A DNA stretch of 64,000 nt from Bacteroidota bacterium. GTDB taxonomy: Bacteria > Bacteroidota > Bacteroidia > UKL13-3. The notes under the pieces were generated by a model. The model was not told where the DNA came from. It searched no databases and saw nothing but the letters and a program-made list of their open reading frames with translations. Both the position numbers and the translations under genes were made by a program. Below are positions 1-12,500 of this stretch, piece after piece (the stretch's first letter is position 1; every line of letters begins with the position of its first letter). The stretch lies in the NCBI GenBank assembly GCA_025359805.1, contig JANYDU010000029.1, positions 14,341 to 78,340 of the forward strand, written 5' to 3'.

Positions 1-508
1 TATCATTAAAAGTTATTTTCAAACCTTTACCAATCACACGAACTGTTTCACACCAGTCGCGATTGTATTTTCTTTTTACGGTTTTGTCTTTCAACCAAAA
101 CCTTGCACTCCAAGAAGAATCAGTTCCAAGAGTTAGACCGAGCAAAGGCAAACCTGTTGTTGCAAAAACGGCAGGAGATATTCTTGTTTCAGCAGTAACA
201 TCATCTCTACTCATTCCCTGCCAACCTTCGGAAGGATGTGAATGAAGAAAACCAATTCCTTGTTTTCTTTCAGTAGCTATTCTCAAAACTCTTTCAAAAT
301 ATTCAGGCATGAAACCAACATTTCCGTGAACTTCCCTTTCACCATCAAGAGGGAAAATAACTTCGCTTAAAATTCCTGTAAATCTTTTACTGCCGCTACT
401 TGGAACATAAGTAGCAAAACATAAATCTTCATCACCATCCTCGCGAATCAGGTGATTGAATAATTGCTGATGAATTTCATCATTCATTACAACACTAAAT
501 TTTTTCAT
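1..508 (-). CDS. JAB/MPN+ (JAMM) metallopeptidase domain protein, N-terminal 169 aa only; the gene runs off the left edge (by family precedent possibly fused to an E1/ThiF-like domain)
   Basis: ATG at 508 overlaps the E2 stop (TAATG). Translation MKKFSVVMNDEIH...DEDLCF...GFLHSHPSEGWQGMSRDD carries the E...HxH...S..D JAMM signature (codons 200-244). It has no stop in the window, so it is missing from the ORF track. Confidence 0.7.
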   Translation of the reverse strand, partial: MKKFSVVMNDEIHQQLFNHLIREDGDEDLCFATYVPSSGSKRFTGILSEVIFPLDGEREVHGNVGFMPEYFERVLRIATERKQGIGFLHSHPSEGWQGMSRDDVTAETRISPAVFATTGLPLLGLTLGTDSSWSARFWLKDKTVKRKYNRDWCETVRVIGKGLKITFND

Positions 509-858
509 TACAATTTTGCTAATAGATTTTTGATGTGTGCGAAATAGGTTTTTACTTTTCTATCAGTTCTATTCCAGTCAGGAAAAGGTCTGCTCCAATA
601 CCTCCATTCGCCACCAAAGGGGCTTGCATGAATGTTATTCGGAGGTTCAACCCAATCCTGAACTCCAATAGATTTGAAATGTGGTCCAGGCGGGCAACTC
701 ATTGGGAAATCGTTTTGAACTTCAAAACCAATTTGTATTTTCTTTCCAATGTTCCGACCAACTGGAATTTCGTATTCAAACGAAACTTTCAAAGCATCTG
801 GCTCTTGGGTAGTAAACCCAAGAACCTTTAGCTCTGCGATAAAATCTGACTTTGCCAT
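508..858 (-). CDS. Minimal prokaryotic E2/UBC-like protein (116 aa)
   Basis: Starts 11 nt after the Ubl gene stop and overlaps the JAB gene start. UBC-like layout: N-terminal helix, beta-meander, FPMSCPPGPHF (like the E2 YPxxPP flap), NNIH (HPN-like) and a C-terminal helix. The context (multiubiquitin + JAB) is typical of prokaryotic E2 families. Confidence 0.55.
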   Translation of the reverse strand: MAKSDFIAELKVLGFTTQEPDALKVSFEYEIPVGRNIGKKIQIGFEVQNDFPMSCPPGPHFKSIGVQDWVEPPNNIHASPFGGEWRYWSRPFPDWNRTDRKVKTYFAHIKNLLAKL

Positions 859-869
859 AAGTGAAAGAT

Positions 870-1433
870 TTAGGAAACTGGTGTTTCACCACGAAATACA
901 CTTACAAACTTCAGTGCGGGACACTTCATTTTTATTGGAGTGGTTGGAGTATCTTTGTACGATGTTTGGCTACCATCATGATTGATTTGAACCAAATAAT
1001 AATCTGCCACTGGAGTAATCCCTGCCAACTCCAAAATTTGATTTGGAGTCAGTTCTTTTTGGTCAGTGGTTTCAGGTTCATCATCTACGGTATAATAAAA
1101 CACTTCGGGAGGTTTCGTTACAAAATGCTCAATCCCTTCCTTTGCTAAGTCAACCTTTTCATTTAGGTCAATCTTCTCAAAATCGCAATGCTTTAGCTTC
1201 TGATAAAGTGTGTGACACTCAACAGGAGTTTTACATGCTTTTTCAAGAATCTCTCTTCCAGTAACTATGTGATGGTCAAAAACGAAATAATCGTTATCAA
1301 CTTTCACTTTATACCTTTTACCTACAGAAGGTTTTTTGTCCAACTTGGTGTAAGCTTCCAAGTCAATTACCTCACCTACACCCTGTGCATCGGAGGTTTC
1401 ATTGTTTTGATTTTTGTTTTTGTCGTTTGACAT
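870..1433 (-). CDS. Tandem beta-grasp 'multiubiquitin'-type ubiquitin-like protein (187 aa, two Ubl repeats)
   Basis: Two ~70-aa repeats share a pattern: KRYKVKVDNDYFVFDHHIVTGREILEKA...IDLNEKVDLAKEGIEHFVTKP and FYYTVDDEPETTDQKELTPNQILELAGITPVADYYLVQ. This resembles the Multiubiquitin domain as I recall it. Confidence 0.65.
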   Translation of the reverse strand: MSNDKNKNQNNETSDAQGVGEVIDLEAYTKLDKKPSVGKRYKVKVDNDYFVFDHHIVTGREILEKACKTPVECHTLYQKLKHCDFEKIDLNEKVDLAKEGIEHFVTKPPEVFYYTVDDEPETTDQKELTPNQILELAGITPVADYYLVQINHDGSQTSYKDTPTTPIKMKCPALKFVSVFRGETPVS

Positions 1434-1653
1434 TTTATTTAAAATTTAAAAATTGTTTCCCCCAATTTTTACTGAAAAAATGCAGGAGGTTAGCAAGTTT
1501 CCAGAGCCGTTGTATTTTAATTGGAGGTTTTCCGAAAGGTGATAAGCCATCGCTTGAATTTACATAACTCAAAACCCTTTTCATCCAATTAACAACTGCA
1601 ATAGAAAACTGGATTTATTTTTTTAATGTCTATCTCTTATCTCATTTATTGTT

Positions 1654-1878
1654 TTAGCCCTTCGGTGGGTAATCATCATTTCCATAGGAATCCTTATCTC
1701 TAATTTGTCCGTTAGGTCTATGAATAACTACTTCCGATTGTTGATTAATTGCAATCTCACGGGCAATCTTAATTGCCTCTGATTGTGTTTCTACAACCTT
1801 TGTTACCTTGTCATTTTTTTCTCCTTTCACAGCCCATTGTTTGCCGTGCGGAACTACATGTTGATTCTTTTTGCTCAT
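1654..1878 (-). CDS. DUF2188 family small protein
   Basis: HVVPHGKQWAVKGE...TQSEAIKIAREIA...VVIHRPNGQIRDKDSYGNDDYPPKG matches the DUF2188 pattern. I start it at ATG 1878 (MSKKNQ) rather than the track's 1935, because a -7 box at 1901-1908 would lie inside the longer ORF. Confidence 0.7.
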   Translation of the reverse strand: MSKKNQHVVPHGKQWAVKGEKNDKVTKVVETQSEAIKIAREIAINQQSEVVIHRPNGQIRDKDSYGNDDYPPKG

Positions 1879-1900
1879 TGGTATATTTTTTAATTCGATG

Positions 1901-1908
1901 CAAATATA
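1901..1908 (-). promoter_or_regulatory. Bacteroidota-type -7 box (TATATTTG on the minus strand) upstream of the DUF2188/Ubl genes
   Basis: Exact TAnnTTTG match 22 nt upstream of ATG 1878. The nearest well-separated TTTG is 24 nt upstream, which is longer than the usual spacing. Confidence 0.35.
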
Positions 1909-1910
1909 AA

Positions 1911-1946
1911 GCAAAAATCTAAATATATCAAGCAAATCTAAATATA
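1911..1946. promoter_or_regulatory. Direct repeat GCAAA(AA)TCTAAATATA x2 in the divergent promoter region (candidate operator of the XRE regulator)
   Basis: Copies at 1911-1927 and 1932-1946 start 21 bp apart (two helical turns). They lie between the divergent DUF2188 and XRE genes. The -7 box at 1901-1908 is a third, truncated copy. Confidence 0.35.
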
Positions 1947-1967
1947 AATATCAACAATTTAGCAAAG

Positions 1968-1998
1968 TTTGTTTTTATGAGCATAATTCATACCTTTG
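1968..1998 (+). promoter_or_regulatory. Bacteroidota-type promoter of the XRE/ImmA pair (-33 TTTG, -7 TACCTTTG)
   Basis: TTTG at 1968-1971, a 19-nt spacer and TAccTTTG at 1991-1998, 25 nt before ATG 2023. This argues against the track's TTG start at 1996. Confidence 0.45.
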
Positions 1999-2022
1999 CC
2001 ACATGGTAAAAATCTCATTTCA

Positions 2023-2361
2023 ATGAAATCATTAGGCAAAACCTTAAAGGATTCAAGAGAGTTAATTCCTTTAACACTCAGGCAAGTTGAAGAAGCAACT
2101 GGAATTTCAAACGCTTATTTAAGTCAGCTTGAAAATGATAAAATCAAAAAGCCATCAGCGAATGTTCTCTACAAACTTGCAAGTATATACAACATAGAGC
2201 TTGATAGTTTACTGGTTGCTTCTGGAATAATAGAAAAGCAATCACCGAAAAAAAGCAAGTTGCTAAACACGATTGCATTATCTGCAGAAACAATGACAAG
2301 CGAAGAGGAGCAAGCATTGTTGGATTATCTTCGTTTTTTACGCCATAAGAAAAATGCTTGA
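2023..2361 (+). CDS. XRE-family helix-turn-helix transcriptional regulator (CapH-like architecture, ~112 aa)
   Basis: LTLRQVEEATGISNAYLSQLENDKIKKPSANVLYKLASIYNIELDSLL is a canonical Cro/C1-type HTH. A short C-terminal helical tail follows. The gene overlaps the downstream peptidase gene by 8 nt. Confidence 0.8.
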   Translation: MKSLGKTLKDSRELIPLTLRQVEEATGISNAYLSQLENDKIKKPSANVLYKLASIYNIELDSLLVASGIIEKQSPKKSKLLNTIALSAETMTSEEEQALLDYLRFLRHKKNA

Positions 2362-3253
2362 ACTACATTCCAAAAATGACATTGAAAAAATTTCTATTGA
2401 AATTTTAAGAGGCAGCAACAGTTTTGATGTTTTTCCAACCCCTATTGACCAAATTGTTTCTTATGCTGAACTTGTAGTTCGTAACGACATCGATGTTTCT
2501 AAAATTCATAACGACTATTTCTCAAAAGCAAGTGATGCACTAAGAAGAGCATTAACTAAAGTAAGAGGAGTATTAGATAGAAAAGAAAGGACAATTTATT
2601 TAGACTTGTCACAGGGTAAACCCAAACAAGGTTTTGTAAAACTCCATGAAGTAGGACATGATGTTTTGCCATGGCAAAAAAATGTTCATGACATATTAGA
2701 TGACGATGATGATTCATTGCATACTGACACTCACGAAGAATTTGAAGCAGAAGCGAATTATTTTGCATCTGCAACTCTTTTTCAACATGACAGATTTGTA
2801 ACAGAACTAAACAAACTAAGTTTGGGTATTGAATCTCCAATGCAACTTGCCAAAATTTTTGGAGCTTCCGTTCATGCTACATTAAGAAGATATATTGAAT
2901 GTTCTAAAAACAGATGTGCTTTAATTGTATTAGAAAATATAACTCCTAAAGGAATCCAACCAAAATGTTTTCTGCGAGACAAATTTCAATCTGATAAGTT
3001 TACCAAGACATTTGGGGATATCAATATTCCATTAGAATTGGGTTACACATGGGCTTTTGTTCAAGATTATTATCATAAGAGAAAATTTAAAAAGGACGGT
3101 TCAATAACTCTCTCAACCAATAATGGAGAAGCTGACTTTGTATATCACTTCTTCAATAATGGCTATAATGCCTTTGTTTTCTTATTCCCAATTGGGGAGA
3201 AGAAAAGTTCAAGAACGAAGATTATCATTACTGATAAGAGTTTTCAGCTATAA
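2354..3253 (+). CDS. ImmA/IrrE-family zinc metallopeptidase with a C-terminal extension (CapP-like architecture, 299 aa)
   Basis: HEVGH (HEXXH) at 2645-2659 is followed by EFEAEANYFASATLF, the ImmA/IrrE (DUF955) third-ligand motif. A ~150-aa C-terminal domain follows. The gene is translationally coupled to the XRE gene. Confidence 0.75.
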   Translation: MLELHSKNDIEKISIEILRGSNSFDVFPTPIDQIVSYAELVVRNDIDVSKIHNDYFSKASDALRRALTKVRGVLDRKERTIYLDLSQGKPKQGFVKLHEVGHDVLPWQKNVHDILDDDDDSLHTDTHEEFEAEANYFASATLFQHDRFVTELNKLSLGIESPMQLAKIFGASVHATLRRYIECSKNRCALIVLENITPKGIQPKCFLRDKFQSDKFTKTFGDINIPLELGYTWAFVQDYYHKRKFKKDGSITLSTNNGEADFVYHFFNNGYNAFVFLFPIGEKKSSRTKIIITDKSFQL

Positions 3254-3283
3254 TATTCATTTCCAACATTTGCCAGCAACCTT

Positions 3284-3349
3284 TATTTGCTGTCCTTTGT
3301 TTGACTTCAAACATTTGACACTTTTATCTATTTGATGTCTTTTGTTTGA
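3284..3349. promoter_or_regulatory. Imperfect 21-bp direct repeat TATTTG(C/A)TGTC(C/T)TTTGTTTGA x2, period 45 bp, upstream of abiEi (candidate autoregulatory operator)
   Basis: Copies at 3284-3304 and 3329-3349 match at 19/21 positions. Each is preceded by AACATTTG(C/A)C (3265, 3310), so the whole ~45-bp unit is duplicated. Confidence 0.3.
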
Positions 3350-3355
3350 TTATCT

Positions 3356-4135
3356 TTGCAATCTCAAATAAACAAGACCGTGGCAAAAGATTTCATAATA
3401 GAACGACTAAAAAAGGAATTCAAAGGAAGAGAAGCATTTTCCAGAGAAGAACTATTTGACTTCTACCGACATTTTGAACCTGAGTTGAAAGAGACAACTT
3501 TCAGATGGAGAATTTATCATCTCAAAAACAAACAGGTAATCACTACAATTTCAAGGGGGCTTTTTACGCTTTCATTCAAGCCAGTTTTTAAACCCGATGT
3601 TGAAGATGCTGAAAGAAAAATATTTTCAAAAATTGAAAAGCAATTTCCCACTCTAAAACTCTGCATTTGGTCAACCAAAATTGCCAACGAGTTTATGTTA
3701 CACATTCCTGGAAAATTCATCACAATTTTACAAGTTGAAAAAGAAGCAATAGAACCCGTTTACAGTTTTCTTAAAGACCAAAATTTTCGAAATGTTTTTT
3801 TTCAGCCAGAAGAAAAAGAAATTGAACGCTACATTTATGAAACCGAAACGGCAATAATATTACAACCTTTAGTTTCAAAATCTCCTACTCAAAAAGTAAA
3901 AAAGGTTGCGTCAACAACCCTTGAAAAGTTGATAGTAGATTTTTATTGCGACAAAAAACTTTTCGCTGCTTTTCAGGGAAGCGAATTTGTTCACATCATC
4001 AACAACGCATACAAAAGATATTCAATTGATTTCACCAAACTTTTTCACTATGCAAAAAGAAGAAGGAAAGAAACTGAACTTGTAGAATTTTTTTCAGATA
4101 AAACAGATATTCCAAATAGTATATTGAATGATTGA
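3356..4135 (+). CDS. AbiEi-like (type IV TA antitoxin / transcriptional regulator family) protein
   Basis: Sits immediately upstream of an AbiEii-type nucleotidyltransferase and overlaps it by 8 nt. The N-terminal winged-helix-like region is ...FSREELFDFY...TFRWRIYHLKNKQVITTISRGLFTL. The start is uncertain: TTG at 3356, no early in-frame ATG, and a TAtcTTTG box overlapping 3351-3358. Confidence 0.5.
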   Translation: MQSQINKTVAKDFIIERLKKEFKGREAFSREELFDFYRHFEPELKETTFRWRIYHLKNKQVITTISRGLFTLSFKPVFKPDVEDAERKIFSKIEKQFPTLKLCIWSTKIANEFMLHIPGKFITILQVEKEAIEPVYSFLKDQNFRNVFFQPEEKEIERYIYETETAIILQPLVSKSPTQKVKKVASTTLEKLIVDFYCDKKLFAAFQGSEFVHIINNAYKRYSIDFTKLFHYAKRRRKETELVEFFSDKTDIPNSILND

Positions 4136-5249
4136 CATTAAATCACTTTCGGCAGAATGGATTGCTGAGAAAAGAAATAAATACAGTAAAGACCCTAACT
4201 TAATGGAAAGCATGATTTATGCTTTGTATCTGTTAGAGCAGTTACAGTTAACAGGACTGGATTTTATTTTCAAAGGTGGAACAAGCTTGATTCTACTGAT
4301 GGAAGAACCTAAAAGGTTTTCAGTTGATATTGATATTATCATAAGCCCAAAAATTAGTCGTGAGGAGTTGGAAAAATATCTTTCAAAGATTGCTGATACA
4401 AGTGCATTCATAAGACTGGAATTGGACGAAAAGAGAAGTTACAATGGTGATATTCCTAAAGCACATTACAAATTTATTTATAACTCAAACTTTCCTAACA
4501 GAAATAAAGAGGGAAAAGTAATTTCTAATCCAGAAAGAGAAATTTTACTTGATATTCTTTTTGCAGACAATCATTATCCAACAGTTATTGAAAGAGCCTT
4601 AGAAACAGAATGGCTGTTACAAATTGACAAACCAGTAATTGTTAGAACTCCTGACATAAATTCAATTACAGGCGACAAGCTCACTGCATTTGCACCAAAT
4701 ACGACAGGTGTTCCTTACAACATGGAGAAGGAAAAGGAAATAATGAAGCAGCTATTTGATATTGGTTGCTTGTTTCATTTACTAACCGATATGGAAGTAT
4801 TCAAAAAATCTTTTACTGAATCAGCTAAAGGAGAAATCGCTTACCGACCAGAAAGGAAAATTGAATCAATAGAGCAAGTTCTAAGAGACACTATTGAAAC
4901 GGGACTGCTAATCGCAAGAAAGGACATCCTTAAAACAGATGATGAAAAAGCTAAGTATGGAGAAATAAATTTAGGCATCAATCAATTCAGACACTTTGTT
5001 TTCCTAGGCAGGTTTGACATTTTAGAAGCACAGGTAGCCAGTGCAAAAGCCGCTTATTTAGCAGCAATTGTTTTGACAGACCGCAAGGAAGTATTAATGA
5101 AGTTCAGCAAAGAAATTCCGTTGGCAGACTACTTAATAACAAATCCTGACTACAATTACTTGAACAAGAGATTAAAATTTGTGGCAGAGGGAGAAGCACT
5201 TTTTTATTGGTATCACACAATCAAATTACTTTATCCAACTAATGAATAA
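4128..5249 (+). CDS. AbiEii/AbiGii-family nucleotidyltransferase toxin (DUF1814)
   Basis: FIFKGGTSLILLMEEPKRFSVDIDIII is the GG(T/S)..(R)FS.D(I/L)D nucleotidyltransferase signature of AbiEii. The size (373 aa) and the pairing with an AbiEi-like gene fit the family. Confidence 0.8.
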   Translation: MIDIKSLSAEWIAEKRNKYSKDPNLMESMIYALYLLEQLQLTGLDFIFKGGTSLILLMEEPKRFSVDIDIIISPKISREELEKYLSKIADTSAFIRLELDEKRSYNGDIPKAHYKFIYNSNFPNRNKEGKVISNPEREILLDILFADNHYPTVIERALETEWLLQIDKPVIVRTPDINSITGDKLTAFAPNTTGVPYNMEKEKEIMKQLFDIGCLFHLLTDMEVFKKSFTESAKGEIAYRPERKIESIEQVLRDTIETGLLIARKDILKTDDEKAKYGEINLGINQFRHFVFLGRFDILEAQVASAKAAYLAAIVLTDRKEVLMKFSKEIPLADYLITNPDYNYLNKRLKFVAEGEALFYWYHTIKLLYPTNE

Positions 5250-5288
5250 GAAGGCCACCACACAAAAAAATACACCCTTCCTTTTTTT
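5250..5288 (+). terminator. Weak intrinsic terminator after abiEii
   Basis: GAAGG (5250-5254) pairs with CCTTC (5276-5280) and is followed by a T7 run (5282-5288). The 21-nt loop is large, so this is tentative. Confidence 0.3.
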
Positions 5289-5337
5289 ACAAATTTATTT
5301 TTCCCACCGCACGGGTTTAGTGGGCAATCGGACGGAC

Positions 5338-5513
5338 GGTGCTTCGAATGTAAATTGCTTCGGACAAAGTGTGTTCGGACTTGAAATACTTGCGCTTCGG
5401 GAGAAAAGAACGGCATCAGCTAACAGCACCTACAAAAAATTGGCGGTTCAGTGGTTAAATGAAGCTTTGTGCTTCGTATCAAGTTCAGTGGTGGCAGACA
5501 GTTTAGTGCTTCG
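5338..5513 (+). repeat. Cluster of short direct repeats: (G)TGCTTCG-type motif x6 and GTTCAGTGGT x2 in a non-coding stretch
   Basis: GTGCTTCG at 5339, 5469 and 5506; TGCTTCG at 5356; variants GTGTTCGG at 5371 and GCGCTTCGG at 5392. TTCGGAC x2 at 5359 and 5374. (G/A)GTTCAGTGGT at 5445-5455 and 5482-5492. Confidence 0.8.
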
Positions 5514-5743
5514 AAATCGCCAACTTCTTGTAGCTGCAAACCGTTAAAACGAACATTCTTTACTACAATAGAAGACAAGACCAATGAACTCTATCTGGTT
5601 GAAGTTGCTGAAGACAATGGCGTTTCATTGACAACTCACTTCGTTTATCAGGTTTACGGAAAAACAAATGGAATTAAACTGCCACTAACACGCTGCTGCT
5701 GCTATGGCCGTTTTTATTTTAAAATTTAACCCAATCAAAAAAC

Positions 5744-5772
5744 TATTTCATCGCTTTAATAATATCTACAAA
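5744..5772. repeat. 29-bp exact copy of the tpiA 3' end (att-like core), followed by a decayed tpiA-like relic to ~5807
   Basis: TATTTCATCGCTTTAATAATATCTACAAA is identical to 6520-6548. Its reverse complement still encodes FVDIIKAMK*. The flanking 5773-5807 aligns imperfectly with 6549-6596 (gattgc; tgctcc-tcaatatc). Confidence 0.9.
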
Positions 5773-5828
5773 GCTGTGCGATTGCTTAACTATTGCTCCT
5801 CAATATCAGTGTTATTGTTAATTTACCG

Positions 5829-5844
5829 ATACTTGCACAAGTAT
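5829..5844. promoter_or_regulatory. 16-bp palindrome ATACTTGCACAAGTAT upstream of the MNT/HEPN pair (candidate operator)
   Basis: Perfect 7+7 inverted repeat with a 2-bp centre, 28 nt before ATG 5872. Confidence 0.35.
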
Positions 5845-5871
5845 TCTTAAAATCATAGTTTCGTTTACGAT

Positions 5872-6174
5872 ATGCAAAGCATCATTGAAAATAATATTGA
5901 TAAAATAAAAGCATTATGCACAAGCTATAATGTGAAATCATTATTTGCTTTTGGCTCGGTATGCAGTGATAGATTTAACGACCAAAGTGATATTGATTTA
6001 TTGATTGCTTTTAACACAATGGATTATGGAGATTATGCCGATTCTTACTTTGCTCTTGCTGATAAATTTGAAGAATTATTTAAACGACCTGTTGATTTAA
6101 TAACAGATAAATCATTATCAAATCCATATTTTATTGATTCATTAAATAGAACAAAAACCTTGATTTATGAATAG
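5872..6174 (+). CDS. Minimal nucleotidyltransferase (MNT/MntA-like antitoxin)
   Basis: LFAFGSVCSDRFNDQSDIDLLI carries the GS...(R)...DxD pol-beta nucleotidyltransferase motif. It is 100 aa and overlaps the HEPN gene by 8 nt. Confidence 0.8.
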   Translation: MQSIIENNIDKIKALCTSYNVKSLFAFGSVCSDRFNDQSDIDLLIAFNTMDYGDYADSYFALADKFEELFKRPVDLITDKSLSNPYFIDSLNRTKTLIYE

Positions 6175-6499
6175 TGAAATTCAAAAGTTTTTATTTGACA
6201 TTAAGGTATCAATTGACTCCATCGAAACTTATCTTGGGGGCAAGAGAGATTTTAACATATACAAAGCGAATAAAATGCTTAGAAGAGCCGTTGAACGTGA
6301 ATTTGAGATTATTGGTGAAGCATTAAATCATATTGAAAAAGTTGATTCGGGTGTTGAAATTTCCAGTAAAAAACAAATTATCGGAATGCGAAACAGAGTA
6401 ATTCATGGTTATGATAAAATTGATGATGAAATAGTTTGGGGAACAATAGTTAGACATTTGCCAGTTCTTAAAATTGAGATTTCAAAACTGATTCAATAA
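6167..6499 (+). CDS. HEPN-domain (DUF86, HepT-like) toxin
   Basis: RNRVIHGY is the Rx4-6H HEPN motif. The 110-aa helical protein is paired with an MNT gene. Confidence 0.8.
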   Translation: MNSEIQKFLFDIKVSIDSIETYLGGKRDFNIYKANKMLRRAVEREFEIIGEALNHIEKVDSGVEISSKKQIIGMRNRVIHGYDKIDDEIVWGTIVRHLPVLKIEISKLIQ

Positions 6500-6518
6500 A
6501 TCAACCCAAATATTTCTT

Positions 6519-7283
6519 TTATTTCATCGCTTTAATAATATCTACAAAACTTCTTGATTGCAATGCTGCTCCACCTACTAATGCTCCATCAATATCGGGT
6601 GCCGAAAATAACTCAACAGCATTATCTGCTTTTACACTTCCACCATATTGAATGGTTAAATGATTTGCAACATCAACACCATACTTTTCTCTTACCAAAT
6701 TTCTAATATACGCATGCACTTCTTGCGCTTGCGCTGTGCTAGCAGTTTTACCGGTTCCTATTGCCCAAACAGGCTCATAAGCAATTACTATATTTGAAAA
6801 TTGTTCTTTAGTTAAATGAAATAACCCTTCGCTCACTTGCGCATGTAATACCTCAAAATGTTTGTTGGCTTCACGTTCTTCTAAAGTTTCGCCACAGCAA
6901 TAAATAGCTGTTAAATTATTAGCTAAAACAGCATCTACTTTTTTAGCCAACCAATCATTGTGTTCGTTAAAATATTGTCTGCGTTCGCTATGTCCAATAA
7001 TAATATATTTGGCACCACAACTTGCAATCATTGCTGCACTTACTTCTCCTGTGTATGCGCCACTCGCATGGTTGCTGCAGTTTTGCGCACCCACTTGTAT
7101 ATTTGATATTTCGGCCACCATTCGGCTAATGGCATTAATATGTGTGAAAGGAGGAATGATAACAACTTCTGCGCTTCCATTATATTCGTCCTTAACCATG
7201 TTGCTTAATTCTGAAACCAAAGCCATTCCTTCATCAAAGGTTTTGTTCATTTTCCAGTTTCCGGCTATTATTTTTTTTCTCAT
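6519..7283 (-). CDS. tpiA: Triosephosphate isomerase
   Basis: MRKKIIAGNWKMN, IIGHSERR and AYEPVWAIGTGKTA are canonical TIM motifs; 254 aa. Confidence 0.95.
   Translation of the reverse strand: MRKKIIAGNWKMNKTFDEGMALVSELSNMVKDEYNGSAEVVIIPPFTHINAISRMVAEISNIQVGAQNCSNHASGAYTGEVSAAMIASCGAKYIIIGHSERRQYFNEHNDWLAKKVDAVLANNLTAIYCCGETLEEREANKHFEVLHAQVSEGLFHLTKEQFSNIVIAYEPVWAIGTGKTASTAQAQEVHAYIRNLVREKYGVDVANHLTIQYGGSVKADNAVELFSAPDIDGALVGGAALQSRSFVDIIKAMK
6520..6548. repeat. Second copy of the 29-bp repeat, inside the functional tpiA 3' end
   Basis: Identical to 5744-5772. It covers the last 9 codons of tpiA and two bases of its stop codon. Confidence 0.9.
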
Positions 7284-7390
7284 GTTTAAAAGATTAAAAG
7301 TTTACAAACTTGATAGTTACAAGGTTGAAAGATTAAAAGAATGCTATGATATTTTATAAATTTTCATCATCATATTTTCTCATCCACACA

Positions 7391-8584
7391 TCAAACCGGC
7401 TTTTCCCAAAAACGATATTTGGCTGATTGATCATACACAGCTTTTAAAATCTCCTTATCAATATCAGTAAAAGGAACGTTCCTTCTTGCATAAACGGCTT
7501 CGGCAGTTTTATAAAATTTATTGAGTACAAATGTTTCGAAGCCTTGTGCACCACCCCACGCAAACGATGGAATAAAGTTACGAGGAAATCCTGAACCAAA
7601 GATATTTGCTCCAACCCCCACAACAGTGCCTGTATTAAACATGGTATTAATGCCACACTTTGAATGATCTGCCATCATCAATCCACAAAAAGTTAATCCT
7701 GTTTTTTCAAAACGTTCTGTTTTGTAACTCCAAAGTTTAACCTCATCGTAAGTGTTTTTTAAATTTGAACTATTGGTATCAGCACCCAAATTACACCACT
7801 CTCCAATTACAGCGTTTCCTAAAAATCCATCATGACCTTTATTTGAATAGCCTAAAAATACCACGTTACTCACTTCTCCACCAACTTTACAATACGGACC
7901 AACAGTTGTTGCCCCATAAATTTTTGCGTCCATTTTTAAACCCGCATGCTCGCACAAAGCAAACGGTCCACGTATTTTACATCCTTCCATTACCTCCGCA
8001 TCTTTGCCAATATAAATTTTACCTGTTAATGCATTTAGTATAGAGAATTCAACTTTTGCTCCTTCTTCAATAAAAATATTTTCAGGATTTAAAAATTGAT
8101 TGGTTGACGAAATGGGTTGAGATTTTTTTCCTTTGGTTAGTAATTCAAAATCTTCTTCAATGGCTTGTGCATTCTTAGAAAAAATATCATAGGGATGAGT
8201 AATTTTTAAGATATTCTCTGCTGATGTTTCTATCTTTTTAGCAGAAATATTTTCTTCAGAAAATGTTACAACATCACTTACCCTTGCAGCTATTAATAGG
8301 TTTCCTTTTACAATGGTTTCTCCTACTTTTAAATGAGCAATTTCGTTTACCAGTTGAACATTTGGGCAAACAGTTCCATTAATAAAAATATTATCGTTGG
8401 TGGTTAGTAAAGGAAATTTTTTCTGTAAATAATCTTGAGTAAAATAAGATAAAGAAGTATTTAAATACTTCGACCATTTTTGGGCAATGGTTAAAATGCC
8501 TATACGAATTTCTGCCGAAGGCCTTGTAAAAGTAAAAGGCAGCAGATTAACACGATCGTTGCTATCAAAAAGTATATAATTCAT
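7391..8584 (-). CDS. GlmU-like putative sugar nucleotidyltransferase / left-handed beta-helix acyltransferase
   Basis: Hexapeptide-repeat C-terminal half (...IGKDAEVMEGCKIRGP...IYGATTVGPYCKVGGEVSN...). I start it at ATG 8584 (MNYILFD), because 8585-8635 contains the rpmE terminator hairpin. Confidence 0.65.
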   Translation of the reverse strand: MNYILFDSNDRVNLLPFTFTRPSAEIRIGILTIAQKWSKYLNTSLSYFTQDYLQKKFPLLTTNDNIFINGTVCPNVQLVNEIAHLKVGETIVKGNLLIAARVSDVVTFSEENISAKKIETSAENILKITHPYDIFSKNAQAIEEDFELLTKGKKSQPISSTNQFLNPENIFIEEGAKVEFSILNALTGKIYIGKDAEVMEGCKIRGPFALCEHAGLKMDAKIYGATTVGPYCKVGGEVSNVVFLGYSNKGHDGFLGNAVIGEWCNLGADTNSSNLKNTYDEVKLWSYKTERFEKTGLTFCGLMMADHSKCGINTMFNTGTVVGVGANIFGSGFPRNFIPSFAWGGAQGFETFVLNKFYKTAEAVYARRNVPFTDIDKEILKAVYDQSAKYRFWEKPV

Positions 8585-8592
8585 CTCGCGTA

Positions 8593-8626
8593 TAAAAAAA
8601 TAAAGCTCTTCAAAACGAAGAGCTTT
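8593..8626 (-). terminator. Rho-independent terminator of rpmE
   Basis: 10-bp stem AAAGCTCTTC (8602-8611) / GAAGAGCTTT (8617-8626) with a 5-nt loop, followed on the minus strand by a T7 run (8594-8600). Confidence 0.6.
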
Positions 8627-8644
8627 ACCATGCAAATATGTACG

Positions 8645-8896
8645 TTATTTTTTTTGTGCGTATCTCTTTTTAAATTTATCAATTCTACCGGCTGTATCCA
8701 CCAACATGTGTTGTCCGGTAAAGAATGGATGAGACTTATTTGAAATCTCTAATTTGTATAAAGGATACTCGTTTCCGTCTTCCCACTTTGTTGTTTCTTT
8801 AGTTTCTACAGCCGAACGGGTCATAAAAGTATAATCGTTTGACATATCTTTAAACACTACTAATCTATAGGTTTTTGGATGAATTTCTGGTTTCAT
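8645..8896 (-). CDS. rpmE: 50S ribosomal protein L31, type B (no Cys zinc ribbon)
   Basis: [17 protein letters not shown]...HPFFTG...[14 protein letters not shown]; 83 aa with no cysteines. Confidence 0.9.
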
Positions 8897-8918
8897 AATT
8901 AGATAAAATTTGGGAGGG

Positions 8919-8949
8919 CAAAACTAAACCTTTTTCAATTAAATGCAAA
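8919..8949 (-). promoter_or_regulatory. Consensus Bacteroidota promoter of rpmE (-33 TTTG, 19-nt spacer, -7 TAGTTTTG)
   Basis: On the minus strand: TTTG (8946-8949), 19 nt, then TAGTTTTG (8919-8926), about 22 nt before ATG 8896. Confidence 0.5.
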
Positions 8950-9069
8950 TCATTCGTGAAAAATTTAACTGTCAGCTTATTAAGCCCGATAAAAATCCCT
9001 TTTTGGGAAATAGCGATAAGTGTAATAATTTGCCACTCACAAAAAGGCTTAATACCATTGTGTAAATAT

Positions 9070-9573
9070 ATGTTACAACAAACACAAATTTTAGATGACG
9101 CGCAGGTTAAACAAATTTTAAAGCGTATGGCTTATCAAATTTATGAAAATAATTTTGGCGAAAAAGATCTCATCATAGCTGGAATAGAAGGACGAGGCTC
9201 GAGCATAGCAGAATTACTTTTTGAAGAGTTGTCTAAAATTTGCAAAATAAAATTACATTTATTAGAGATTCACTTAAATAAAAAAAATCCTACTGGAGGA
9301 AGTGTTTTATTGAGCGATGAAAAAATAAATATTGCGGATAAAAATGTAGTTGTTGTTGACGATGTATTAAACACTGGAAAAACTTTGGTGTATGGTTTAA
9401 CTCCTTTCATCAGAAACAAAGCCAAGCAAATTAGAGTAGCTGTTTTGGTAGATCGCAATCATAAAAACTTTCCTATAAGTGCCGATTTTATTGGAATTTC
9501 ACTCTCCACAACTTTACAAGAACATATTACCGTATTGATTGAAAAGAAAAAAGTGAATGTATATTTGAGTTGA
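9070..9573 (+). CDS. Phosphoribosyltransferase family protein (PyrR-like)
   Basis: VVVVDDVLNTGKT is a PRPP-binding loop and MLQQTQILDDAQVKQILKRMAYQIYE is a PyrR-like N-terminus. I prefer ATG 9070 over the track's 8956, because the upstream 38 residues look non-coding. Confidence 0.6.
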   Translation: MLQQTQILDDAQVKQILKRMAYQIYENNFGEKDLIIAGIEGRGSSIAELLFEELSKICKIKLHLLEIHLNKKNPTGGSVLLSDEKINIADKNVVVVDDVLNTGKTLVYGLTPFIRNKAKQIRVAVLVDRNHKNFPISADFIGISLSTTLQEHITVLIEKKKVNVYLS

Positions 9574-9577
9574 AAAA

Positions 9578-12500
9578 TTAAAAGCTCCTTCCCACTCCAA
9601 TCATCCATCTATAATTTAAGTTTTTACCATCTTCATAGGGTGCGTTGCTCAAATACAATGGCATATCAAAACGAATGGTTAATGGTTTAATATCATCTAA
9701 TACACCCCATTTTTTTATGGTAAGTGCAAAGCCTGCACCAGCACTTGCAAGTAAGCCTGTATTCAGTGCTGTAAAAGATGTTGGCGTAATCGTTTCCGAT
9801 ATCATTGGTTTATTGCTTTTTAAAATACCTCCATCAAAAAATAAATAACTATCCATATGAAAATATTTTAGGAATCCTTTTGCTGGAATGGGAATAAATT
9901 TATCATAATCTAATTCAAAATTAATGGCTGCTCCAGTATTTCCTTTATATAAAAAATATTGATTGTTATTGGCATCATTTACCGGCATTAAATAGCCTGC
10001 ATATCCTCTAATATTTAATCCTCCTCCTTGTTGAAAATGATTTGTATTTGCGCCATAAGTAAATAATTGTTGAGGAATAATTCCTGCCGAGCGTGCAAAT
10101 TTATTATCAGCCATTTCCTCTGGATTTGCTCCTGCTAAATACAATTGTGATTCGGGTGCTGCATTACTCCCTGTCATGTATTGCGCAAATACTCTCGATT
10201 TTAATTCGAGCTTTGAAATATTATTATTTTGTACCGCATTAACGTAAACTGTTGCATAATCAAAATCAGAATAAATAGCTGAAGTGCGCATACCTAATAA
10301 AATTTTTCCTGAGCCTAAATTGCCTTTGTAATTTTTTTCTACTTCAAGATTTAAGGTATTGTTCCATTGATCATGAGAGGAAATGTTTGGATAGAAATTA
10401 AACGTTGGATAATAAGCAGGTAAATAATACAATTGAACCCTTCTCATGCTTTTTGCAAATACCCTGAATGTAGTATTGTGATGTGTTTTTTCGATTCCAA
10501 TTTTATTCATCAGTAACCCATCCAACAAACGTGATTGAACAAATACATCTGCAAATTTCCCAACTCGTGTTTGATAGGATGCACTATAATGAACAGGGTA
10601 AATAGGCGCATTATTTTTATAAATACTATCTACATAATTATTTCCTAAACCTGTATTGTACCATGCAGTAACTTTAAACACATGTTTTTGGTTCATGTAG
10701 TTTCCGTTAAAATGCAAGCCCACTTTTACGCCATCATAATTATTATACCACACATCTGGCCTCCATTTTAGGATATAATGTTTTCGGTCTAAAGGATTTT
10801 TTATTTGGTGATCAAACGTAAAAAGTGTTGGACATTTTAAACTATTATTTAGTTGGTTGATATCCGCTAAACGGTAGGTTGGATCGATGATTACGTTTTC
10901 GATTTTGCTATTTTCTGGTAGCGTAATTTTTGCAGTATACGTTGGATTTAATATTCCCCACCCTTTCCAAACGGGTAAAATTTCAGCATCTGATTGCTTT
11001 GCGAAATAGGTATTTGGGATAATAAATTTATAAGAAGAATCTTTAGTTTTAACTGTAAAATCAAGAGGCATTTGCATATCACCAATACGCTCAAAATTGA
11101 TTTTATATTTGTTGTCTTTTAATCTTTCAACCTTCTCAACTTTGTAGTCAATACTTTTCGTTGTTTCAATCCATTGATCAAAAAACCAATTCAAATCAAC
11201 ATGCGTATAATTGATAATAGAGTTTCTAAAATCATCAAAATACGGATGGCAAATTTTCCATTGACTGAAATAATGTTGCATGGCTTTTAAAAACAAACTA
11301 TCCCCCAACACATATTGCAAATTATAAAGCATAGTTGCCGTTTTATAATATACATGTCCGTAGCCACCACCATGATTTAATGCTCCACCAAAATCATCGC
11401 TATGCGTATTTAATGTTGCATCATTTTGGTTGATGGCATCACGTATATAACCTAAATAAACGGTTTGATCCATAGTAGATAATGGTGTGTAATATTTGCC
11501 AACATATTCCCTACTTTTTTTGGTTGATACATCTCCAAAAAATTTAGTCATACTCCAATTGGTTAAAAATTGTGTGAAGCCTTCATCTAAACTTGCACGA
11601 TAGGTTTCGTTATTTCCTACCATTCCAAAAAACCAATTATGACCAACTTCATGTGCAAACAAACCATAATATCCTGGACTTAATCCTCCATCCAAAGTAA
11701 GCATCGGGTATTCCATTCCATCTCGTGCATCAGCCACAATCATTTTTGGATACGCATATGCACCAATATCTGTTGAGTAGGTTCCAATAATTTTTGAAGT
11801 GAAAGAAGAGGCATCTTGCCAACGGCTTGCGTGTGGCTCTTGTGCGAGGGATATGCAACTTACTTCATGTCCGTTTGAAAGCATAATTTTTGTTTCATCG
11901 ATTCTAAAAGTAGGATCCGCAACCCAAGCAAAATCATGCACATTTATGGCTTTAAATTTCCATGTTTTTGTAGTTCCATTTGCAATAATTATTTCGGAAG
12001 GTTTTTCGTTTAGAGGTTTATCTTTAAAATTTTTAATATCCAATTTTGAGCGAAGTTCTTCTGGCAAAACTTCTGTTCTATTTTGTAAAACTCCTGTGGC
12101 ATCCATCACGTAGTTATTTGGGAAAGTAAGTTCCACATCATAGCTACCAAAATCTCCATAAAATTCTTTTCCTAAATGCTGGTCGGTTTCCCAACCAAAT
12201 TTTCTATCATACACACAAATACGCGGATACCAATGCACACCATCGTATTGTTTATTTCCCCAAGAATCTTTAAATGTTTTCATTCTCCTGCGTTGATCTC
12301 CGCCTGCATCAAAATACGTTTTGAATTTTATCTTAAGAGTTATGGAGTTATTTGGAAGCAGGGGATTTTCAAGTTGTACTTTCATAATGGTATTATCGAT
12401 GAATAGAATCTTGCCTTCAATTCCTGAAAATGTATTGATAAAATCATCTTGAATTCCTGATGAATTTGGTTTGCCTGAACGGTGTTCTTCACGCGTATAA

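Follow-up and report, generated by a model that had tools for sequence, protein, structure and literature searches.

Which of its neighbours does a two-gene regulator control when it stands between a ubiquitin-like (Ubl) conjugation operon and an abiE pair, and through what DNA site? The question is raised by the left end of a 64,000-nucleotide (nt) stretch of Bacteroidota DNA (contig JANYDU010000029.1; hereafter the window), the sequence of which begins inside a gene for a JAB-E1 fusion. Two gene sets diverge here, the minus strand carrying the JAB-E1, E2-like, Multi_ubiq (Ubl) and DUF2188 genes and the plus strand those of a helix-turn-helix (HTH) protein and an M78 peptidase, with an intergenic region of 144 bp (1879-2022) that adjoins the DUF2188 start codon (reverse complement, 1876-1878). 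An earlier note on this DNA had read the HTH/peptidase pair as a CapH/CapP-like switch placing the Ubl genes under damage-inducible control. The CapH/CapP architecture has been borne out by sequence, predicted fold and gene order, and the pair very probably constitutes a CapH/CapP-type switch, of a Bacteroidota-wide lineage, that controls the divergent DUF2188/Ubl/E2/JAB-E1 unit.

The characterised CapH represses the operon of CBASS, an antiphage signalling system based on cyclic oligonucleotides, by binding a conserved 22-bp promoter site and requires its C-terminal oligomerisation domain, while CapP, activated by single-stranded DNA (ssDNA) or DNA damage, cleaves CapH in the C-terminal domain, as described for the E. 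coli pair (Lau et al., 2022). CapH/CapP-like pairs have also been reported upstream of, and divergent from, DUF2188 operons and operons of the 6a and 6e (multi-Ubl + E1) types (Lau et al., 2022), and a 2024 paper on Bub operons found CapH together with CapP at 168 of 544 of them (31%; PMC11601596), with a companion paper reporting likewise. That CapH/CapP pairs accompany Ubl operons is thus already published and the present locus is a further example, whereas the operator consensus, its placement on divergent promoters of the Bacteroidota type and a split-gene cargo devoid of BubE were not found in those papers, supplementary tables aside.

Neighbours of the regulator pair in homologous loci

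A profile of the peptidase was scanned against one genome per species, yielding 80 loci, almost all from Bacteroidota and with 43-87% identity. Their open reading frames (ORFs) were annotated with the proteins of the window and of one relative, and 71 of these species-representative loci had enough upstream DNA for neighbour calls. Co-occurrence with Ubl operons, on which the earlier note had made its reading depend, has been found in 53 of the 71, where the pair is divergent from a Multi_ubiq/E2/E1 operon with or without BubE; a DUF2188 gene lies between the two in 11 of these 53 loci. Sampling among the remaining 18 revealed type II CBASS (DncV-like, ThiF+Prok-E2_B and Prok-JAB), SMODS cyclases, a 6a-type E2-E1-JAB fusion and a Bil-like set, the last being a tentative assignment (L069) made from gene sizes and order, as Pfam found only DUF7665 and the putative Ubl and E1 were without a match. 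In a relative whose peptidase is 85% identical to that of the window (P0002), the pair stands beside a DUF2188/Multi_ubiq/DUF6791/ThiF/BubE set, without abiE, and an unrelated helicase follows the peptidase.

The pair is therefore linked to the Ubl operon and not to abiE, whose control by the pair the earlier note had named as an outcome that would refute its reading. The abiEi gene does begin 127 bp past the peptidase stop on the same strand, as would suit regulation of abiEi/abiEii by the pair, yet such control is extremely improbable and was rejected: the window's own contig (L001) and an 87%-identical relative (L004) are the only loci where abiE comes after the pair, the other 79 lacking it there; between the peptidase gene and abiEi there are a terminator-like hairpin (3274-3292) and a -7 box of a separate promoter (3351-3358); and a matrix scan of the abiE promoter revealed no operator box. 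AbiEi is, moreover, an autorepressor in type IV AbiE systems, which has also been counted against this alternative.

The HTH and peptidase proteins

The HTH gene starts at an ATG (2023, MKSLGK...) downstream of a plus-strand -7 box (1991-1998), and this start corresponds to an N-terminus conserved across 70+ homologues. The Pfam families HTH_3 (5.8e-11) and HTH_19 (1.4e-9) match the protein, and the PADLOC capH profile matches residues 2-109 at 8.2e-10 over profile positions 5-101 of 103. Its matches in the PDB include an ICEBs1-type Xre regulator (7t8i, the best, at 5.9e-6), the N-terminal domain of CapH (CapH-NTD, 7t5u, 2.4e-5) and DdrO. A single-sequence AlphaFold2 (AF2) model shows an HTH domain, a linker at residues 68-76 and helices at 77-88 and 93-111, with a predicted local distance difference test (pLDDT) score of about 77-83, and the C-terminal motif LLDYLKFLR is conserved in homologues. 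As modelled, this layout of HTH domain, linker and two C-terminal helices is that of CapH, with oligomerisation and the cleavage site as predicted properties.

The peptidase has an HEVGH motif at residues 98-102 and EAEANYFA at 131-138, with H98, E99, H102, E131 and E133 invariant in 24 homologues. It matches Peptidase_M78 in Pfam at 4.4e-8 and capP in PADLOC at 1.2e-18, and a profile of the 24 homologues has Thauera CapP (7t5t, 5.2e-7) as its best match in the PDB. The AF2 model is confident only at residues 150-288, an alpha/beta domain with a pLDDT of about 73-94, mostly above 90. When searched with Foldseek, the model led to PprI/IrrE structures first (8sln, 3dte, 8slm and 3dti; probability 1.0, E-values from 3.6e-4 to 1.5e-3) and, further down, to phytochrome GAF domains, among which CapP 7t5t stands at rank 7 (probability 1.0). 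These fold matches correspond, at the level of the models, to the peptidase/linker/GAF layout described for CapP and IrrE.

The ICEBs1-type regulator as best structural match of the HTH protein, along with the HTH and M78 architecture shared with ImmR/ImmA, would also suit an immunity module of a mobile element or prophage, concerned with excision or lysis and with the Ubl genes as mere neighbours. This explanation is highly unlikely and has been rejected, as the first 9 kb contain no integrase and no phage structural genes, with tpiA following at 6519-7283, and the gene sets divergent from the pair in the 71 loci, 18 of them covered by sampling, are defence operons (Ubl, CBASS, 6a or Bil-like) rather than mobile-element genes. 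Searches for tRNA and tmRNA in 1-12000 and for Rfam families in 1-9000 found none, so that neither an RNA element nor the edge of a tRNA-linked island has been seen near the locus; the missing tRNA likewise argues against a mobile element.

The predicted operator and its promoters

The 170 bp upstream of the HTH start codon were aligned in all loci and a matrix was derived from 70 homologous upstream regions. The alignment reveals a box of 20 bp, AATCTAAATATATCAAGCAA, whose information content is 24 bits and which is located 95-135 bp before the HTH ATG. In the window this box (1916-1935, O1) is a perfect consensus of 29.9 bits and the best match in the whole 64 kb on both strands, followed by the adjoining 1935-1954 at 11.8 bits and, elsewhere, by a site of 9.9 bits. 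The 12.6 kb of HTH-upstream DNA hold 91 sites of at least 15 bits and the 1.29 Mb of flanks only 6, an enrichment of about 1500-fold per base. The recognition helix of the HTH protein, ISNAYLSQLENDKIKKPS, is almost invariant across the family, in parallel with the box. By its sequence conservation the 20-bp box is the predicted operator of the HTH protein, to which we infer that the protein binds.

Bacteroidota promoters, as known from Bacteroides and Flavobacterium, consist of a -7 box, TAnnTTTG, and a -33 TTG about 19-20 bp upstream. This pattern was used in place of a sigma-70-type promoter scan, which turned up 7 promoters where shuffled sequences led one to expect 8.3. In 57 of 60 loci, CAAAnnTA, which is the -7 box in reverse complement, precedes the conserved box on its left side at a fixed distance of 2-8 bp, and in the window the minus-strand -7 box (1901-1908) is 7 bp away from it. 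The minus-strand promoter has its -33 TTG (reverse complement of CAA at 1929-1931) inside O1, in the best-conserved stretch of the box, ATCAAGCAA, and the remainder of the box occupies the spacer. A further -7 box is present between operator and HTH ATG in 56 of 60 loci. An inverted copy of the box, of at least 10 bits, lies downstream in 28 of the 60, at 49-54 bp (start to start) in 20 of these 28, and in the HTH promoter such copies cover, as a mirror image, the -33 and the spacer. The corresponding site of the window, O2 (1965-1984), keeps the modal distance of 49 bp from O1, start to start, and overlaps the -33 TTTG (1967-1970) of the HTH promoter. Weak inverted repeats around the DUF2188 start (I1, I3 and I4) are not conserved in relatives and were set aside.

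The earlier note had described the operator as a repeat phased by 21 bp. A repeat is indeed present: GCAAAAATCTAAATATA at 1911-1927 and GCAAATCTAAATATA at 1932-1946 start 21 bp apart, a distance that results from a 2-nt indel between the copies, and the exact repeat is a 13-mer, AAATCTAAATATA, found at 1915-1927 and 1934-1946 with a spacing of 19 bp. Two or three direct GCAAA..TCTAAATATA repeats in a two-turn phase of about 21 bp could themselves be the binding units, a view favoured by the exact 13-mer, by the rank of the second copy as runner-up in the matrix scan and by a second CTAAA, about 19 nt downstream, that is kept in about 11 close relatives and only there. It is nonetheless a rather unlikely one, as the exact spacing is 19 and not 21 bp and the second direct copy is missing in most of the family, whereas 28 of the 60 loci carry an inverted copy, for the most part at the distance given above. 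The third copy, GCAAATATAAA (1900-1910), contains CAAATATA (1901-1908), the reverse complement of TAnnTTTG, and is conserved in relatives as a promoter element (CAAAGATA, CAAAGGTA or CAAATATA) rather than as an operator copy. The box reads as a perfect palindrome, TTGCTTGATATATCAAGCAA, in two loci (L063 and L065), which suggests that one such 20-bp site is occupied by a dimer.

When the 144-bp region was simulated with a first-order Markov model, 174 of 20,000 runs produced an exact direct repeat at least 13 nt long (p about 0.009), so that the 13-mer alone is only modestly unusual, and the comparative signal is far stronger. The first copy of the 13-mer is the left half of the conserved box, and the region of the second, 1935-1954, overlaps a second possible minus-strand -7 box at 1933-1940. 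From the earlier description, then, the existence of the repeat has stood, as has the placement of a truncated third copy in the minus-strand -7 box, which fits the Bacteroidota consensus; the 21-bp phasing has given way to the 20-bp box at 1916-1935 as the conserved operator. A tetrameric repressor bridging adjacent sites is possible, although the family-wide pattern does not require one.

Two further observations concern the box in single relatives. A changed recognition helix occurs only once in a 74-sequence alignment (L044, ISTAYLSQ against ISNAYLSQ), and in the 170 bp upstream of the same HTH gene (start at 5597) repeated GCCTAAAT units replace TCTAAAT; this single case of joint helix and box change may represent covariation of protein and operator. 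In Mucilaginibacter sp. SP1R1 (L072), two more strong boxes (22-23 bits) face each other at a distance of 32 bp. This second pair is located at offsets of -5453 and -5421 from the HTH start, about 5.4 kb upstream of it and past the far end of the Ubl operon, and may belong to a second regulated promoter or to a remnant cassette.

Box, regulator and cargo

When the same regulator precedes CBASS, 6a or SMODS cargo (L017, L022, L023, L064, L078 and L083), the same box is kept, identical at 29.9 bits, and the recognition helix is near-identical. Cargo of the window type (a Ubl protein of 181 aa, an E2 of 116 aa at 91% identity and a JAB-E1 of 479 aa) is found in L084-L090 with different regulators, namely a canonical CapP (PADLOC 1.4e-66), a 140-aa protein with a weak capH match (0.0035) and a 206-aa protein without a family match. 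The 20-bp box was sought in L084-L090 and is absent; the intergenic region there contains an unrelated nested palindrome, ATATGTTATC...TTTTTGCAGGT / ACCTGCAAAAA...GATAACATAT. Being kept with the regulator across cargos and absent with another regulator, the box tracks the HTH protein, as an operator should. The divergent trio of regulators is seen at 5480-7443 in L084 and also in L087 and L088.

Judged from these sequences, regulator, operator and promoter look like a portable cassette common to defence systems. It can be proposed, tentatively and with some doubt, that capP, capH, the 20-bp operator and the bidirectional promoter form a self-contained portable switch that recombination has joined, within Bacteroidota, to no fewer than five kinds of cargo (Bub of Type I and of Type II, CBASS, 6a and a Bil-like kind yet to be confirmed), and which in the window would drive an undescribed split Ubl/E2 variant of Bub without BubE, together with DUF2188. 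If this were true, a cell with several such cassettes would fire all of them through the shared operator, given that operator and recognition helix are near-invariant.

The divergent cargo operon

The DUF2188 protein matches PF09954 at 4e-24 and the PADLOC profile PDC-S16 at 2.5e-37, and the Ubl protein matches PF14452 at 1e-17 and multi-ubiquitin/BilA structures (8u38 and 9d5b) in the PDB at about 5e-7. Pfam and PADLOC found no match for the JAB fragment or the 116-aa E2. Homologues of the latter with 50-56% identity (E-values of about 1e-31 to 1e-35) carry PF14462, Prok-E2_E; a profile-profile comparison with DUF6791 of the Type II neighbour was negative (probability 0.4, E-value 0.16), a PDB sequence search with the E2 profile returned nothing, and a BLASTP comparison with L043's BubAB fusion fell short of significance. 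The JAB-E1 gene is complete on the identical contig L001, where it encodes 479 aa with ThiF at 3.5e-31 and has Citrobacter BubCD (9ea4, E = 1e-19) as the best solved structure, over residues 6-328 and both domains; the L001 sequence stops 28 bp beyond the end of this gene. A JAMM-like motif, HSHPSEGWQGMSRDD, can be read directly from its sequence. The earlier note had called this gene JAB; the JAB part has been upheld, and the whole gene is a JAB-E1 fusion homologous to BubCD.

A gap of 11 nt parts the ORF of Ubl (870-1433) from the separate one of E2 (508-858), and fused Ubl-E2 forms occur in L043, L046 and L058. On these homologies the cargo operon is Bub Type I-like, with split Ubl and E2 genes. 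According to the 2024 paper, bubE is present in all Bub operons (PMC11601596). The window is cut inside JAB-E1, so the region where BubE would lie falls outside it. After JAB-E1, BubE/DUF6527 (PF20137) is absent in three loci with the same operon type and regulator lineage (L007, L019 and L031) and in the relatives L084-L090, whose E2 is 91%, 86% or 54% identical; it is present in other Ubl operons with this regulator. The window-type operon may thus represent a subtype without BubE that has so far gone undescribed.

DUF2188 behaves like a mobile accessory of the cassette. It may stand between regulator and Ubl gene, past BubE at the distal end of the operon, or downstream of the peptidase, and it also accompanies non-Ubl (cyclase-like) cargo, as exemplified by the window (1654-1878), L012 (6878-7102), L074 (6826-7047), L019 (5687-6019) and L028 (8965-9192).

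Proposed mechanism

In the proposed switch, the HTH protein would oligomerise through its two C-terminal helices and bind the box at 1916-1935, filling the spacer and the -33 TTG of the minus-strand promoter, whereby the DUF2188 and Ubl conjugation genes would be shut off. Autoregulation may come from the weak inverted copy (1965-1984), which covers the -33 of the promoter that drives the pair itself. Following a stress signal, the HEVGH peptidase would cleave the repressor in its C-terminal domain, binding would be lost and the operon would be expressed. By analogy with CapP and IrrE, this signal would most likely be ssDNA arising from DNA damage or phage replication, and the damage-inducible step is proposed on the same analogy.

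Several observations weigh against this switch or against parts of it. The capP match in PADLOC is confined to the N-terminal half of the peptidase, and this half is poor in the AF2 model (residues 1-143, pLDDT below 50), which accounts for the low TM-scores of the Foldseek matches (0.32-0.37). The cysteine switch is missing, as a loop of similar length between HEVGH and E131 holds no cysteine and Thauera Cys113 aligns to an Ile; this loop is present in only about a third of CBASS CapPs and is hence optional (Lau et al., 2022). The activating signal may differ from ssDNA. The O2 site of the window is decayed, with 10 of 20 positions matching and a score below 0 bits, and is essentially lost, so that autoregulation is doubtful here. 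Finally, a 220-bp gap (1434-1653) separates DUF2188 from the Ubl gene, which makes their co-transcription a putative one.

This non-coding gap also admits a narrower scheme, in which the pair would control only itself and DUF2188, while Ubl, E2 and JAB-E1 would be transcribed from a promoter of their own in 1434-1653. The mobility of DUF2188 (L012, L019, L028 and L074) is in keeping with it, as is the listing of DUF2188 operons as CapH/CapP cargo in their own right (Lau et al., 2022). The scheme is unlikely, given that pattern, hairpin and matrix scans of the gap revealed no TAnnTTTG box, no terminator-like hairpin and no operator box, that the 42 of 53 Ubl-linked loci without DUF2188 have the Ubl gene directly abutting the operator and promoter, and that the 85%-identical relative keeps the DUF2188/gap/Ubl layout with a different Bub subtype. 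As the gap shows neither promoter, terminator nor operator, co-transcription would be the simplest reading, and control of the whole divergent unit is preferred.

With regard to significance, the locus adds a Bacteroidota example to the published rule that stress-triggered CapH/CapP switches gate Ubl and other defence operons. Its interest is modest, since the association had already been published, and the current picture is unchanged. The practical gain is a precise predicted operator, a 20-bp box over the -33 and spacer of a Bacteroidota-type promoter. Among the carriers of the cassette are cultured organisms, for example Niabella aurantiaca DSM 17617 (L018), Flavisolibacter nicotianae X7X and Marinoscillum luteum KCTC 23939 (L031), the first and the last of which share the layout of the window; these strains offer a place to find the conditions that induce Ubl operons, a missing step toward what these pathways modify.

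Gene layout and downstream features

The coordinates of the locus are collected in Table 1. On reading the sequence, the gene coordinates, lengths, motifs and 144-bp intergenic region given in the earlier note all proved correct. The HTH and peptidase genes share 8 nt (ATGCTTGA), and overlaps of 4 or 8 nt between the two are found in 36 of 74 homologous loci.

Table 1. Features at the left end of the window, with position, strand and basis of assignment.
Feature	Position	Strand	Basis
JAB-E1 fusion, BubCD homologue, N-terminal 169 codons; runs off window start	1-508	-	homologues/PDB
E2-like protein, 116 aa, Prok-E2_E family by transitive homology	508-858	-	homologues
Ubiquitin-like protein Multi_ubiq, 187 aa	870-1433	-	PF14452
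DUF2188 protein, 74 aa, first gene of the divergent transcription unit	1654-1878	-	PF09954
Predicted -7 box TATATTTG of the DUF2188/Ubl promoter	1901-1908	-	TAnnTTTG pattern
Conserved 20-bp box O1 AATCTAAATATATCAAGCAA, predicted main operator	1916-1935	+	matrix, 29.9 bits
Partial second direct copy AATCTAAATATAAATATCAA	1935-1954	+	matrix, 11.8 bits
Degenerate inverted partner O2	1965-1984	-	family modal distance, below 0 bits
Predicted -7 box TACCTTTG of the HTH/peptidase promoter	1991-1998	+	TAnnTTTG pattern
capH-like repressor, 112 aa, XRE-type HTH + two C-terminal helices	2023-2361	+	HTH_3, PADLOC
capP-like Zn peptidase, 299 aa, M78 HEVGH domain + linker + GAF-like C-terminal domain	2354-3253	+	
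Terminator-like hairpin closing the regulator unit before abiE	3274-3292	+	
abiEi/abiEii, downstream of the peptidase gene	3380-5249		
MNT/HepT pair, beyond abiE	5872-6499		
tpiA, housekeeping	6519-7283		

Upstream of abiEi, a direct repeat, TGTCCTTTGTTTGA / TGTCTTTTGTTTGA, is located at 3291-3304 and 3336-3349 with a spacing of 45 bp, just before the abiEi -7 box TATCTTTG (3351-3358), and its copies are candidate autorepressor sites of AbiEi. The approximately 620 bp between abiEii and MNT/HepT (5250-5871) are without a convincing ORF and without an Rfam match at gathering score. The 87%-identical relative with the same DUF2188/HTH/peptidase/abiEi order (L004, CAYQLE010000055.1) is a contig of 2.1 kb binned as 'Candidatus Saccharibacteria'; as all other relatives are Bacteroidota, this contig has probably been mis-binned.

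Comparison with known systems

The DdrO/IrrE (PprI) system of Deinococcus, an HTH repressor cleaved by an M78-GAF peptidase on DNA damage, provides the best fold matches of the peptidase model (8sln, PprI with ssDNA, at 3.6e-4, followed by 3dte, 8slm and 3dti). Its genes are unlinked and serve a chromosomal repair regulon, whereas those of the window overlap and lie beside a single defence-type operon. In the ImmR/ImmA system of ICEBs1 and phage phi105, an HTH repressor and an M78 anti-repressor peptidase form one operon with a damage-linked trigger, and an ICEBs1-type structure (7t8i) is the best match of the HTH protein in the PDB; the window pair has no mobile-element genes under its control, and the partners of its family are defence operons.

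On the cargo side, the Bub (6E/DUF6527) system shares the multi-beta-grasp Ubl, the family-E E2 and the JAB-E1 fusion (Citrobacter BubCD, 1e-19). It differs in that Ubl and E2 of the window are separate and not a BubAB fusion, the closest relatives are without BubE/DUF6527 and DUF2188 precedes the operon.

The closest known system is CapH/CapP, as described from E. coli MS115-1 and Thauera sp. K11. The window lineage is a distant one, its capP match (1.2e-18) extending over the N-terminal half only and its peptidase being without the cysteine-switch residue and 299 aa long, against 291 residues in the Thauera CapP chain 7t5t. The window promoters are of the Bacteroidota type, with the box overlapping the -33 and spacer, whereas in CapH/CapP the site lies upstream of the -35; and CapH/CapP is known biochemically, the window pair from sequence and models. 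In common are a repressor of the XRE-HTH type, about 110 aa long and ending in a domain of two helices (as predicted for the window protein), and an M78 peptidase that combines HExxH with a GAF-like domain at the C-terminus. In both, the two genes are adjacent, with capH next to the defence operon on the opposite strand, the promoter region between them and that operon includes a conserved site of about 20 bp, and the lineage is also found at CBASS, 6a and 6e operons.

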